Source: a virus. Taken from it: a stretch of DNA of 64,000 nucleotides. The stretch covers positions 1 through 64,000 of the IMG/VR virus record IMGVR_UViG_3300042892_002240, one strand, 5' to 3'. The position numbers and the translations under genes were made by a program. Positions 35,665-58,987 of the stretch are shown one piece after another. The notes under the pieces are model-generated. The model had not been told where the DNA came from and did not search any database. It saw only the letters and a list, made by a program, of their open reading frames with translations. Within the stretch, counting starts at the first letter, position 1; each line of letters starts with the position of its first letter.

Positions 35665-35674
35665 GGAGAACCAC

Positions 35675-36403
35675 TTGAAAGAGTTTTACGGAATTGTTGG
35701 TGCTGGATCTGCGCCAAAGAAAGTAATTGATGCCGCATTAAATGATATTGGCACTCAATCGTCATTTATTATTCCGTGGTACGGAAGCATGTCTAAAGGT
35801 TTAGAAGTTGTGTACGACTGGGTTCTTGACAATGACGTGTCTTTTATTATCGCTGCTTTAGAGGGTGTTAAAAAAGTTCCTAAATCTCTAGCTGAAAAAG
35901 CAGGAGGTATTGTGAATGTTGAAGATGTAAATGACTACATTCTGTGGGACCTTAAAGGTAAAGAAGTTCCTGGTATGTCATTAGTTCTTTGGGATGAAGA
36001 AGATGAACCTTCATCAACGCGACTTGCAGCAATGTCAATTGGTATGCAATTGCCAACCCTTGAACTTACAAATGGCCTTGTTCCTATTATGCTGGATGAC
36101 TCACCAGATGTGCAGGTTGTTGTAAGTGATGAGTTGCCAGACATTGATGAAGCTGCATATGACAGAGAAACCCTTGAAATCATGCCAACTGCGTTAGTTA
36201 AGCGAATGGCAAAAGATAAAGGGTTTGAACCTAAATCAAAAGAAGAAGCAGTAGAAATGCTTTCGCCTACAAAAGAAGATGAGAAAGTCATTGGTTCTAT
36301 TATCTTCCTAATGAACGACGGTTCAGAAATTGGGTTTAATGGCACTGAAGCAATCCTTAAAGAAATGTTTAAGATTGTGGCCAAGCATTCTGTGCAATGG
36401 TAA
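35675..36403 (+). CDS. Hypothetical protein (alpha/beta N-domain, Rho-N/HeH-like motif)
   Basis: AAGGAG SD plus TTG; LE.M....VKR.AK..G...KSKEE...L. Confidence 0.6.
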   Translation: MKEFYGIVGAGSAPKKVIDAALNDIGTQSSFIIPWYGSMSKGLEVVYDWVLDNDVSFIIAALEGVKKVPKSLAEKAGGIVNVEDVNDYILWDLKGKEVPGMSLVLWDEEDEPSSTRLAAMSIGMQLPTLELTNGLVPIMLDDSPDVQVVVSDELPDIDEAAYDRETLEIMPTALVKRMAKDKGFEPKSKEEAVEMLSPTKEDEKVIGSIIFLMNDGSEIGFNGTEAILKEMFKIVAKHSVQW

Positions 36404-36952: not shown

Positions 36953-37387
36953 TTATTTGGTTGAGGCCCGAAGTTGCCAGGACCATTTATTGTGGTTGTC
37001 AATGCGATCAGCAAGGAAATTCATAATTCCTTGTTCGTCTTTCTTTTGAGCCTCATCAAATGCTTTTTTAAGAGATTTAAGAAGGGCTTCATTTGCCGTC
37101 AACAGGGACTTGGCCATTGCTTTTGGATTAGGTTGTACATCTTTAAAATCAAGGGTGCGAAGATCTAAGAACTTTTGCAGGCTAAATGGAGCGTAATCGT
37201 CAAGTTTACGAATGTTTTCTGCAATTAGGTCAATTGACCCATAGGCATCTTCGTAGATTTCTGAAAACAAAGCGTGATATTGGCTAAAATCAGAACCTTC
37301 TACATTCCAATGGTATCCATGGGCCATAAAGTAAAAAGTGACTACATCTGAAACAAGCACTTTGAGAGCTTTAACAAGGGCTTCCAT
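36953..37387 (-). CDS. dps: Dps family ferritin-like protein
   Basis: HWNVEG.DF...H.LF.E.YE, D.IAE.IR.L, H.K..W.L; AGGAG SD. Confidence 0.92.
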   Translation of the reverse strand: MEALVKALKVLVSDVVTFYFMAHGYHWNVEGSDFSQYHALFSEIYEDAYGSIDLIAENIRKLDDYAPFSLQKFLDLRTLDFKDVQPNPKAMAKSLLTANEALLKSLKKAFDEAQKKDEQGIMNFLADRIDNHNKWSWQLRASTK

Positions 37388-37398
37388 TTTGTCTCCTA

Positions 37399-37486
37399 CA
37401 AAAATACTGGGGTATGTGAAGTATACCCCACACACCCCAGCGTTTTGTAAAAACGCCAGGCTGAAGAACCACCAACTAACCTGGCA
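37399..37486 (-). ncRNA. Candidate structured leader/small RNA upstream of dps
   Basis: Three stems on the minus strand with G-U pairs; the last (15-16 bp) is followed by UAUUUUU; preceded by TTGTAA-18-TATACT. Confidence 0.5.
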
Positions 37487-37491
37487 GCCCC

Positions 37492-37521
37492 AGTATAGAG
37501 GGTCTTTTTAAAAGATTACAA
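37492..37521 (-). promoter_or_regulatory. Sigma70-type promoter TTGTAA-N18-TATACT (minus strand)
   Basis: Reverse complement of agtata (37492-97) and ttacaa (37516-21). Confidence 0.5.
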
Positions 37522-37568
37522 CCCGGCTGTTGCAAAAGCCACAAGATCTCGTGTACAGTCATGGACCC

Positions 37569-38810
37569 ATGACCACCAACGTTTTTGACGGCCCTTTCTT
37601 AGCAGTCCCAGTTTGGGCTGTTGGGGAAATTAGGGATTACGGACAGCCCCGAGATTTACAAGTCTTGCTTGGGTTGGTCGCCCTTATGGAACGCCGAACC
37701 AAAGAAATTGCAGCTTCTGTAATACAGATAGCCGAGTATGTTGGTGTCTCAAAAGAGACCGCAAAACGGTCACTAAAGTGGTTGGCAGACCACAAAGTAA
37801 TCACAGTTATCCACAGGCAAAAACCATTAGTAAATGTTTACACACTGCACTACACACCGCCCGTTAAACACGGAGATAGGGTCATGGGTGACCCTATGAT
37901 GGGGTCACGAGAGACCCTATATGGGGTCACAGAAGACCCTATGGTGGGGTCACAGGTGACCCTATCTACAACAACAAAAGACCAGCATGATGAACCTTTT
38001 TCAAATTTCAATATAAAGATACTAAATAGAAGTACTAAAGAGATAGTAAAGAAAGCCGCAAGCGGCACGGAGGGCGAGATGATTTTAGGTTCAGATCCAG
38101 ACGATCCAGTTAGTGGTTTTGAACTTCCCCCAAAGAAAAAAGTACCTAGAAAAACAAATCAGTTTGTTAACCATTTCCTCAGCAACAAACACTCAATCAT
38201 GTCTAGCTCACACAGTCCAAAAGATGTAATGATTTTAAGAAAAACGTTTAGCACCTTGATTGACTCAGGTTTAACAGAGTTCACCATCATGCAAATGGTC
38301 ACAAAATTCTTTTCGGTACAACGTTGGCGGGAAGCAGACAACACTGTTTTGTTATTTTGCACCAAAGACATCCAACAGAAATTGATGGAGCAGGTTGAAA
38401 CAACAGTAGTTTCAGACAACCCCGTATTGTCCCTGATGATGAATGACTTTGAGCGCCTAGATCTTGATATCCCCTGGCCAGCAGCAATGGACTTAGTTCT
38501 TAAAAAAGTTGTCATTCGTCACGGCATGGATGTTTGCTACAGATATCCTGAAATTGTTGCTGAGTTAATAACCATCCACAACGGTGCGTTTTACTCAGAT
38601 GAATTTAATACTTCTTTGTCTGCGCTAAACTCTCTTATAAGAGTTATATCCGGAGAAGAACAAGAAGACTCAGCGTTGCTTTTAAAAGAAGTTGCGCACT
38701 TGGGTTTACCAGAAGAACTACTTAAACTTTCAAGTTCCAATCTACGTCTACCAGCGGATTCCATTGTTGAAGCGGTCTACAACTACCGAAGGGCAACCCA
38801 TGGACGATGA
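37569..38810 (+). CDS. Replication initiator-like protein (N-terminal wHTH, internal iterons)
   Basis: S...IAEYVGVSKETAKRSLKWL....VI HTH; repeats directly after it; upstream of DnaC/DnaB. Confidence 0.75.
   Translation: MTTNVFDGPFLAVPVWAVGEIRDYGQPRDLQVLLGLVALMERRTKEIAASVIQIAEYVGVSKETAKRSLKWLADHKVITVIHRQKPLVNVYTLHYTPPVKHGDRVMGDPMMGSRETLYGVTEDPMVGSQVTLSTTTKDQHDEPFSNFNIKILNRSTKEIVKKAASGTEGEMILGSDPDDPVSGFELPPKKKVPRKTNQFVNHFLSNKHSIMSSSHSPKDVMILRKTFSTLIDSGLTEFTIMQMVTKFFSVQRWREADNTVLLFCTKDIQQKLMEQVETTVVSDNPVLSLMMNDFERLDLDIPWPAAMDLVLKKVVIRHGMDVCYRYPEIVAELITIHNGAFYSDEFNTSLSALNSLIRVISGEEQEDSALLLKEVAHLGLPEELLKLSSSNLRLPADSIVEAVYNYRRATHGR
37875..38055. repeat. Four iterons GGGTCA-N4-(T/A)GACCCTAT (22-23 bp period) plus AT-rich tract: probable replication origin
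   Basis: GGGTCA at 37879, 37902, 37924 and 37947, each forming an inverted repeat; A-rich 37990-38055. Confidence 0.85.
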
Positions 38811-39168
38811 CGACGACACCTACCACGAATACACCTTTAACAGCGTAGAAGACATTTTTGTTTTTGTTGAATGGGTAAGGGCCAATTTTGATGATGCCGA
38901 AGAATACGAAACATGGTTTTTGTACGCGATGGACGATGACATCCCCCCAACAACTTTTTGCACAAGAGGGAAAAAGGTTGAACAACCCCTACACTCCTGT
39001 GTAGAGTGCAAAGCCCAGTTCCTAACACAAGCCGGGTTAGACGTCCATCAAAAAGTAGTGCACAAGAATAAGAAGAAGATCCAAAAGCAGTTTTGGGAGA
39101 TTGTAAACAACTCCTACGAGAACCACCAAGAGGAAACTAATGACAAAGGAATTTCAGACCCCGACTGA
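38800..39168 (+). CDS. Protein with classical C2H2 zinc finger
   Basis: HSCVECKAQFLTQAGLDVHQKVVH = C-x2-C-x3-F-x5-L-x2-H-x4-H. Confidence 0.7.
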   Translation: MDDDDDTYHEYTFNSVEDIFVFVEWVRANFDDAEEYETWFLYAMDDDIPPTTFCTRGKKVEQPLHSCVECKAQFLTQAGLDVHQKVVHKNKKKIQKQFWEIVNNSYENHQEETNDKGISDPD

Positions 39169-58412: not shown

Positions 58413-58688
58413 ATGGCTACTCCTCGTAAACCAGGTATGTGGGCTGATGGTATGCCAATTGCTCCAGGCTCTCGCCTTCGCGTAGATCGCCCAACTCTTG
58501 CCGCAAAGAAGATTAGGCCTACTTTAAGTCTTACTTCTAATCAAGATGATGCACCACCCATGGGTATGGCTCGCCCACAGATTCCTGCCCACCTAAAAGC
58601 TCCGGTTTACAACGAACCAGATCCAGCTGGAGGTATGGCCCGCCCACAACTTCCCGAACACTTAAGAAATCTACAGCAAGGAAAGTAA
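58413..58688 (+). CDS. Pro-rich protein with GMARPQ.P.HL repeat x2
   Basis: GAGGA SD; internal duplication. Confidence 0.65.
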   Translation: MATPRKPGMWADGMPIAPGSRLRVDRPTLAAKKIRPTLSLTSNQDDAPPMGMARPQIPAHLKAPVYNEPDPAGGMARPQLPEHLRNLQQGK

Positions 58689-58690
58689 TC

Positions 58691-58987
58691 ATGGCACGCC
58701 CCTGGCAGTCACGACAAGAGTTTCTTACGGATCAGGCTTTGCAGTCTGCTATTAGCGATCCTGAAACTATTCGCAAGACCCGCCCTGTTGTGCCCCAGCA
58801 GCTATTCCCCGAACGTGAAGGCTTTAGTAAACAAGAAGGCACTATTCAAACAATTCTAAACATTGATCGTTACATGCCTACTAAGCGTTCATGGTTGTCT
58901 GGTATGCCAGTTATGCGCACATCTATTGAAGATGGTAGTTTTGAAGGCTCAGGAAGATACTCAATGAACAGTATGTGGGGTGGCTAA
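58691..58987 (+). CDS. Hypothetical protein
   Basis: AAGGA SD; coupled. Confidence 0.65.
   Translation: MARPWQSRQEFLTDQALQSAISDPETIRKTRPVVPQQLFPEREGFSKQEGTIQTILNIDRYMPTKRSWLSGMPVMRTSIEDGSFEGSGRYSMNSMWGG

Follow-up and report, generated by a model that had tools for sequence, protein, structure and literature searches.

A conserved hairpin RNA upstream of dps

The 64,000 nucleotides (nt) of viral DNA analysed here (positions 1 to 64,000 of the IMG/VR record IMGVR_UViG_3300042892_002240, referred to as the window) encode, on the minus strand between dps and a divergently transcribed replication initiator gene, a conserved, strand-specific and undescribed phage RNA element. This conclusion is well supported, because the predicted fold, the covariation of the first hairpin, the strand asymmetry, the single-copy matches of a covariance model and the absence of an Rfam match all speak for it. 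Regarding its function we favour, with middling confidence, a small RNA acting in trans, which would pair through one hairpin loop with the ribosome-binding sites (RBS) of replication genes and of further genes tagged with a common start motif.

All coordinates of the element refer to the minus strand of the window. It stands behind a sigma-70-like promoter, P1 (37492-37521), composed of TTGTAA (37521-37516), an 18-nt spacer and TATACT (37497-37492), which had been named in an earlier reading of the letters alone (the original prediction) and was independently picked by a promoter scan. Hairpin 1 (37455-37485) starts 6 nt past the P1 -10 hexamer. Its 8-bp stem, formed by GCCAGGUU (37485-37478) and AGCCUGGC (37462-37455), is present in the computed fold as it had been drawn, and carries the 15-nt apical loop AGUUGGUGGUUCUUC (37463-37477; ending in CUCC in the consensus of the relatives), the proposed base-pairing seed directed against RBS. 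Then follow a U/A-rich linker, GUUUUUACAAAAC (37442-37454), a 16-bp hairpin termed stem 3 (37406-37441), which holds all four of the G-U pairs counted in the original prediction, and a U-run (37400-37404, within AUUUUUG). A terminator scan calls stem 3 of the window terminator-like, and the RNA is predicted to span approximately 37485-37400, about 86 nt to the end of stem 3. The Shine-Dalgarno sequence (SD) of dps, AGGAG (37397-37393), and its ATG (37387-37385) come directly behind (together 37385-37397). The dps gene itself (36956-37387, minus strand) has a Pfam Ferritin match at 6e-17.

The 113 nt from 37380 to 37492 fold on the minus strand with a minimum free energy (MFE) of -50.1 kcal/mol (z -6.31; none of 200 shuffles was as stable), compared to -30.9 kcal/mol (z -3.1) for the plus strand of the same stretch. 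In the MFE and in the centroid structure, pairing between the linker and the dps SD region gives an outer helix enclosing stem 3. Two smaller structures of the original prediction fared less well. The stem GCGUUUU/AAAACGC (stem 2), which also lies in the linker, can be drawn, but it occurs in neither of the two structures, the same bases being paired with the SD region there, and it is absent from all relatives and thus specific to the window. Likewise, the small hairpin UUUUGU-AGGAG-ACAAAA around the dps SD is drawable but weak and only loosely paralleled in other loci, and in the MFE structure the SD lies in the outer helix instead.

The element could not be assigned to a known RNA family. 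At the gathering threshold, the covariance models of Rfam 15 gave no match in the window and eight related loci, and the best match of a permissive scan of 37250-37700 was mir-338 with 21 bits against a threshold of 57 (E 0.12); nothing emerged either from Rfam scans of mycobacteriophage Adephagia, which is discussed below. An origin of the loop from a tRNA was considered on account of its resemblance to D-loop and T-loop fragments and rejected, as ARAGORN detected neither tRNA nor tmRNA genes in the window and the sequence does not allow a T-stem. The loop (GUUGG-UGGUU-CUCCU) also resembles the 3' end of 16S rRNA, which reads GUUGG-AUCAC-CUCCU; this is only a resemblance, and mimicry of the rRNA end is not relied on here.

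Conservation among uncultured relatives

Among 80 viral loci retrieved with the Dps protein of the window, about ten distinct lineages of uncultured phages with genomes of approximately 92 kb share the layout upstream of dps, and their Dps proteins are 72-92% identical. The window belongs to a complete 92.5-kb viral record, for which no close isolate relative was found: a tblastn search of 50,697 phage records gave no match with the initiator and only weak matches with Dps. In the seven lineages checked (the window, L004, L007, L024, L038, L043 and L046), a TTGnnn-17/18-TAnnnT promoter is followed after exactly 6 nt by hairpin 1; a similar promoter is found in L005 and in the variant L054. The hairpin-1 stems differ from lineage to lineage (GCCAGG, CCGGG, GCUGGA, AACCAGU, UACCGAG, ACACCGAG), whereas the loop, AGUUGGUGGUUCUCC, is almost invariant. 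In 14 distinct sequences, 7 of the 9 pairs of hairpin 1 changed on both sides, and the covariation score of 0.414 (0.149 in shuffles) was not reached in any of 500 shuffles. A search with the covariance model R1 gave a single match per hairpin-bearing locus examined and no match in the hairpin-less loci. Moreover, in all 15 variants compared, the dps-sense strand folds better, by 2-19 kcal/mol, and offers 3-10 G-U pairs, compared to 0-2 on its complement. Selection at the RNA level, for which the original prediction had argued from the G-U pairs, is thereby borne out together with its proposal of a novel phage RNA with its own promoter, and hairpin 1 recurs in about ten lineages.

The remainder of the element is more variable. 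Between hairpin 1 and stem 3 the sequence, the length and the number of hairpins depend on the lineage, and two lineages have a variable middle part with an extra hairpin and a second GGUGGUU copy, located just 5' of stem 3 (L038:1638-1728 and L046:2390-2488, plus strand). Every lineage has a long hairpin at the stem-3 position, and its arms differ greatly in sequence. For this hairpin we report folds of the individual sequences, and a column-wise covariation count was dropped, since MAFFT misaligned the lineages because of their differing loops and bulges. A terminator-like hairpin with a U-run is present in most but not all lineages; the run is missing in the lineage of L046, L049 and L056 and weak in L024. 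Most other lineages are also predicted to form an outer helix around stem 3, extending to the dps SD or the spacer behind it. The divergent relative L054 (2388-2503, plus strand) possesses a different first hairpin with the loop UUCGUGGUGGUU, followed by AUGGUUAUCCU, and this hairpin was not detected by the covariance model; the dps SD of L054 is AGGAU instead of AGGAG, so that AUCCU/AGGAU may be a matched change.

Copies outside this group are rare. An exact 15-mer scan of viral contigs returned mostly coding matches of the VGGSP type, and the hairpin was found only in dps-linked loci and in two contigs named L149 and L188. A copy in a host genome or prophage was also considered, but 185,579 prokaryote genomes, scanned with an 18-mer, yielded 21 matches, which is about the chance number, all of them coding or without hairpin.

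Complementarity of the loop to gene starts

The gene divergent to the element encodes a replication initiator (phrog_270), and downstream of it lie genes for a DnaC-like helicase loader (phrog_50; 39140) and the DnaB helicase (40157). The initiator gene starts with ATG-ACCACCAAC (37569-37580, plus strand), and the 9 nt after the ATG perfectly complement GUUGGUGGU in the loop (-16.9 kcal/mol). Seven lineages have the sequence ATGACCACCAAC unchanged at this start, with synonymous drift in the codons behind it. We take ATG 37569 as the most likely start rather than TTG 37530 of the program-made list of open reading frames (ORF). The initiator promoter, TTGCAA-18-TACAGT, has its -10 hexamer (37554-37559) ending 9 nt before the ATG, and the initiator mRNA is therefore probably near-leaderless. 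In the L038 and L046 lineages the initiator has a normal leader with an AAGGAG SD, and their start region, (A/G)AGGAG-CCACC-start, matches CUCC..GGUGG in the loop as a complement apart from a 2-nt bulge. At the helicase loader (start region 39118-39142, plus strand; ATG 39140), GAGAACCACCAAG (39118-39130) lies just 5' of the SD and is identical over 11 nt to the antisense of the loop. A third site is the start of a 242-aa gene of unknown function, where GGAGAACCAC is followed by TTG (35665-35677, plus strand).

Loop duplexes were calculated for the 131 predicted gene starts of the phage's own genome (mean -8.9 kcal/mol, standard deviation 2.6). The best duplex was obtained with a 162-aa gene at genome position 72296 on the minus strand (AAGGAGAACCACC-ATG; -19.8 kcal/mol), the second-best with the helicase loader (-19.1 kcal/mol) and the third-best with the initiator. 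A second-best duplex this low did not occur when the loop was fully shuffled (0 of 400) and occurred twice in 400 shuffles that kept its anti-SD part. Furthermore, the start complementarity differs between hairpin-bearing and hairpin-less loci, with -17.7 versus -12.2 kcal/mol for the helicase loader, -15.0 versus -9.8 kcal/mol (means) for the 242-aa gene and -16.8 versus -14.8 kcal/mol for the initiator. Across the hairpin-bearing lineages, an invariant loop is accompanied by initiator, loader and 242-aa gene starts that keep their complementarity to it.

The complementary sequence also appears as a stereotyped start motif of the form (A)AGGAGAACCAC(C)ATG, the examined copies of which lie 6-9 nt before the ATG. 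We counted its 10-mer GGAGAACCAC, omitting the antisense copy that the hairpin itself provides; approximately 0.2 copies are expected per genome and a reversed-pattern control gave 0-1. Exact copies number 3-4 in the genomes G001, G002, G003 and G006 and 0-2 in the less complete G007-G010. All copies examined in the former four genomes and in the window's own genome are situated at gene starts, mostly of genes with unknown function. In seven hairpin-less relatives we found 0-1 copies, and the single one examined was not at a start. The motif is thus asymmetric, contains AGGAG, lies near starts and is overrepresented in one orientation, as known for start-associated sequences of mycobacteriophages, with fewer copies than in cluster K.

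From the promoter and hairpin layout and the pairings read in the sequence we infer, for what would be a small RNA gene of its own, a possible course of transcription, termination and regulation. P1, a promoter of the host type, would start transcription at the foot of hairpin 1 and yield an RNA of approximately 86 nt up to the end of stem 3. In the window, stem 3 and the U-run would end most transcripts; in some relatives, transcription probably proceeds further, and the RNA would form a dps leader. The almost invariant loop of hairpin 1 (15 nt; AGUUGGUGGUUCU(C/U)C) would serve as a seed for pairing with start regions, namely codons 2-4 of the initiator (ACCACCAAC), GAGAACCACCAAG beside the SD of the loader and the genes starting with (A)AGGAGAACCAC(C)-ATG. 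Such pairing would block ribosome entry, by which the translation of replication genes and other non-structural genes could be limited or timed. Stem 3 may have a second role, in that a -10 hexamer at its apex (P2) would start the dps mRNA inside the 3' arm with a free SD, whereas in read-through RNA from P1 the dps SD would be locked in the outer helix.

Several points weigh against the trans-acting small RNA. Transcription from P1, the 3' end, P2, pairing of the loop in vivo and translational repression are all deduced from the sequence. Because the loop is rich in G and U and contains an anti-SD, its pairing with any start region is favoured. The own-genome target statistics are only moderate: three matches at or below -16 kcal/mol occurred in 11 of 400 full shuffles and in 24 of 400 anti-SD-keeping shuffles (p about 0.03-0.06 for the count), and when all 2043 candidate start codons are included, 28 of 110 shuffled loops find an equally good best partner, which is not significant. 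We hence discarded the energy rank as proof of a target and kept the stricter 131-gene test. The window's own genome holds only 2 exact copies of GGAGAACCAC. Since one invariant loop faces differing target sites, there is no compensatory change between loop and target, and in L005 a change of the loop from GUUGG to GUAGG lowers the complementarity to its own initiator. In L188 the 5' part of the loop is conserved though the start motif does not use it, so that another constraint is possible. The hairpin-less relatives form a single clade, hence the joint absence of hairpin and motif represents about one evolutionary event and is weak evidence; the presence/absence correlation was dropped as an independent argument. 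To these points the lineage of L046, L049 and L056 has to be added, which is treated in the next section.

The element as a possible leader of dps

In a different explanation, all transcription comes from P1 and the element is a cis-acting 5' leader of dps. Stem 3 would then either terminate transcription or, together with the outer helix, hide the SD, and some signal or factor acting at hairpin 1 would open the structure and allow dps expression. We regard this as fairly unlikely as the principal function, but the two readings are compatible and can coexist. The outer helix is predicted in the window and most relatives, and its two arms vary in a coordinated manner (for example UAGGUC/GACCUA in L025, UAGGUUC/GAGCCUA in L043). 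In L038 and L046 the second GGUGGU copy pairs with ACCAC, and in several lineages the loop can pair with the dps start at -15 kcal/mol. Moreover, the RNA of the L046/L049/L056 lineage must run into dps because the U-run is absent, and there it must be a dps leader. A cis effect of the outer helix on dps translation is plausible from the predicted structures: in P1 read-through RNA the SD or the spacer would be covered and translation inefficient, whereas transcripts beginning at the stem-3 apex would leave the SD accessible. As a separate observation, the ACCAC/CCAC that separates the dps SD from the ATG in L038 and L046 is the predicted pairing partner of the second GGUGGUU; dps itself has a start region of the tagged type there, which would be masked in cis.

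Nevertheless, the riboswitch-like switch of the original prediction, or a metal-sensing attenuator of dps, was not supported, and any riboswitch or attenuator reading of the leader is weak. No ligand pocket in the form of a conserved multi-helix core was found, the only invariant part being the 15-nt apical loop of one simple hairpin, and the element contains no conserved pair of mutually exclusive terminator and antiterminator with a U-tract. Stem 2 occurs in the window alone, overlaps stem 3 by two bases only and would not break the terminator, and the U-run varies. In the window, the loop and the dps start region form a duplex of -6.7 kcal/mol, which ranks 1550 of 2044, as opposed to -15 kcal/mol in several other lineages; given this inconsistency, loop 1 was rejected as a cis anti-SD for dps. 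Furthermore, no dps lies near the identical loop of L149 and L188, a simple promoter precedes dps in relatives that lack hairpin 1, and no Rfam family matched.

Instead, dps probably has its own promoter, P2. The second TATACT that the original prediction had seen in the loop of stem 3 (37420-37425) may represent its -10 hexamer. A TAnnnT hexamer lies at or beside the stem-3 apex in all lineages (TATACT, TACAAT, TAAACT, TAAAAT or TAGAGT), 28-37 nt upstream of the dps ATG, and this matches the -10 position in the hairpin-less relatives. The conservation of this -10-like hexamer in the loop of stem 3 is what suggests a separate dps promoter and, at the same time, speaks against a leader from which all dps mRNA is derived.

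DNA-level and protein-binding explanations

Next to a replication initiator, a conserved 15-bp sequence could also act as DNA, either bound by the initiator or a regulator recognising GGAGAACCACC or as a hairpin for replication priming. The element adjoins replication genes here as well as in L149 and L188, where a Toprim/primase-like gene precedes it; the double-stranded sequence is also repeated at several places, and in the latter two contigs the U-run is on the opposite strand, so that strand use is not uniform. However, the likely iterons of the initiator are of unrelated sequence. They consist of four tandem palindromic 22-23-bp repeats, ATrGGGTCAnnnnnGACCCTAT, found by a repeat search inside the initiator ORF (37876-37965), and a pattern search detected a perfect DnaA box, TTATCCACA (37807-37815), about 60 bp upstream of them. 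Very probably, a lambda-O-like origin is located at these iterons and the DnaA box within the initiator gene. Hairpin 1 was accordingly rejected as an origin or iteron, also because the loop motif is present only once in the intergenic region. In addition, the arms flanking the loop covary, which preserves pairing rather than sequence, the G-U pairs favour one strand in all 15 variants, the initiator site of two lineages fits the loop only with a 2-nt bulge, and the other motif copies examined are all at gene starts and in the mRNA sense, which suits RNA pairing better than scattered operators. With unrelated iterons, covariation and strand asymmetry taken together, we consider a protein-binding DNA site or origin hairpin improbable. 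Similar repeats, GGGTCACCCATGACCC, are found in hairpin-less relatives such as L008, and a pattern search revealed four perfect co-oriented DnaA boxes within 137 bp of the phage's own genome (81570-81706), outside the window.

Hairpin 1 could alternatively serve as a loading site for an antitermination factor or modify the polymerase, similar to nut/boxB or put, and so permit read-through of stem 3 into dps. The succession of a promoter, an immediate hairpin with a conserved loop and a terminator can be likened to the architecture of lambda nut and HK022 put, which is established knowledge on those phages and not a test on the phage studied here. Yet the U-run of the terminator is not conserved, the 15-nt loop is unlike boxB or put, no Rfam family matched, and the complementarity of the loop to gene starts would be left unexplained. 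This explanation appears to us about as improbable as a DNA element.

Parallels in other phages

The contigs L149 and L188, of approximately 45 kb and apparently unrelated to the phages above, contain the identical 15-nt loop on a GC-rich stem, CCCCCGCG/CGCGGGGG. In both cases the hairpin (L188:3864-3905, plus strand; L149:2914-2955, minus strand) lies between the Toprim/primase-like gene and a convergent small helix-turn-helix gene. Near-identical CAGGAGAACCACA..ATG starts were found at no fewer than 7 genes, i.e. at least 7, in L188 and at several in L149.

A second parallel concerns the cluster K mycobacteriophages, which carry 11-19 start-associated sequences (SAS), GGGATAGGAGCCC, with a partner that is still unknown (PMC3203893, PMC11373665, PMC12699233). 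The SAS was described as a stereotyped extended RBS near the starts of some non-structural genes, conserved beyond the pairing with 16S rRNA (Pope et al., 2011, PMC3203893). One reversed SAS per K1 genome, which is not at a gene start, was reported only for four K1 phages (PMC3203893). In Adephagia we counted 16 forward copies and one reversed copy. Read on the gene-sense strand, the latter is the apical loop (CCUCCUAUCC, 10 nt) of a hairpin of approximately 20 bp, in a region (L236:38640-38740, plus strand, corresponding to about 58639-58739 of JF704105) that folds at -47.9 kcal/mol (z -4.9). It lies in the gap between genes 92 and 93, the reported start region of late transcription (PMC11373665). 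Five other cluster K phages, CrimD, LastHope, Validus, Niklas and Amelie, retain the hairpin and its loop, and their stems show compensatory changes, whereas the K3 phage Keshu and SirPhilip have no such loop at the homologous spot. Our literature search, which was not exhaustive, found no paper describing this hairpin.

These parallels lead us to a more general and rather tentative idea, namely that phages tag early or non-structural genes with an extended RBS and encode one hairpin RNA with a complementary loop, an "anti-SAS", by which the whole set would be switched off (or on) together. At the same tentative level, this design might be realised in three apparently unrelated groups, the phage family of the window, L149/L188 and the cluster K1 mycobacteriophages.

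Comparison with known systems and significance

With regard to established regulators, the window RNA works, as we read it, like those of the c4 and CopA types but belongs to neither family. The c4 antisense RNA of phages P1 and P7 (RF01695; the CI RNA of P4 is related) exposes loops complementary to the RBS regions of nearby phage mRNAs. Common to both are a small phage RNA encoded beside its target and not on the opposite strand, the use of a loop against an RBS and the proposed block of translation. Nevertheless, the window RNA shows no match to c4 in sequence or structure, including Rfam. Furthermore, c4 is cut from the transcript of its own target, an antirepressor operon, whereas the window RNA has its own divergent promoter, and its proposed targets are replication genes and a dispersed start motif.

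CopA of plasmid R1, RNAI of pT181, the Inc RNA of ColIb-P9 and OOP of lambda are likewise short structured RNAs beside an initiator gene, whose loops pair with the start of the initiator. These RNAs are transcribed from the opposite strand and fully complementary to their target, whereas the window RNA (approximately 37485-37400, minus strand) starts about 80 nt upstream of the initiator, runs divergently and does not overlap it (ATG 37569, with the -10 hexamer at 37554-37559, plus strand), and its complementarity is confined to 9-13 nt of one loop. The cluster K system resembles the window in its extended start motif and in the reversed copy as hairpin loop (Adephagia), but its motif is GGGATAGGAGCCC instead of (A)AGGAGAACCAC(C), it has 11-19 instead of 0-4 exact copies per genome, and it occurs in other phages with presumably other hosts. 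Global control of a set of mRNAs via the SD region is also known from Yfr1, a cyanobacterial anti-SD small RNA with a conserved C/U-rich single-stranded motif between hairpins, and from RegB of phage T4, which cuts GGAG in early start regions. This likeness is a functional analogy without homology, since RegB is a protein nuclease and Yfr1 is encoded by the host and has its motif outside a hairpin loop.

Few phage-encoded RNAs with regulatory roles are described, most of them from model phages. The element described here would add a new RNA family from widespread uncultured phages of approximately 92 kb, located at the heart of their replication module. It also cautions that a structured RNA with a terminator upstream of a metal-related gene is not necessarily a riboswitch. 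If the trans-acting reading is true, one hairpin would control the initiator, the helicase loader and a small regulon tagged at the RBS, and hence represent an RNA counterpart of the protein-based shut-off of early genes. If the idea of an anti-SAS RNA is true as well, the long-sought partner of the mycobacteriophage SAS would be named. Through the parallel in Adephagia, the 15-year-old question of what reads the SAS becomes directly testable in a tractable laboratory phage and host.

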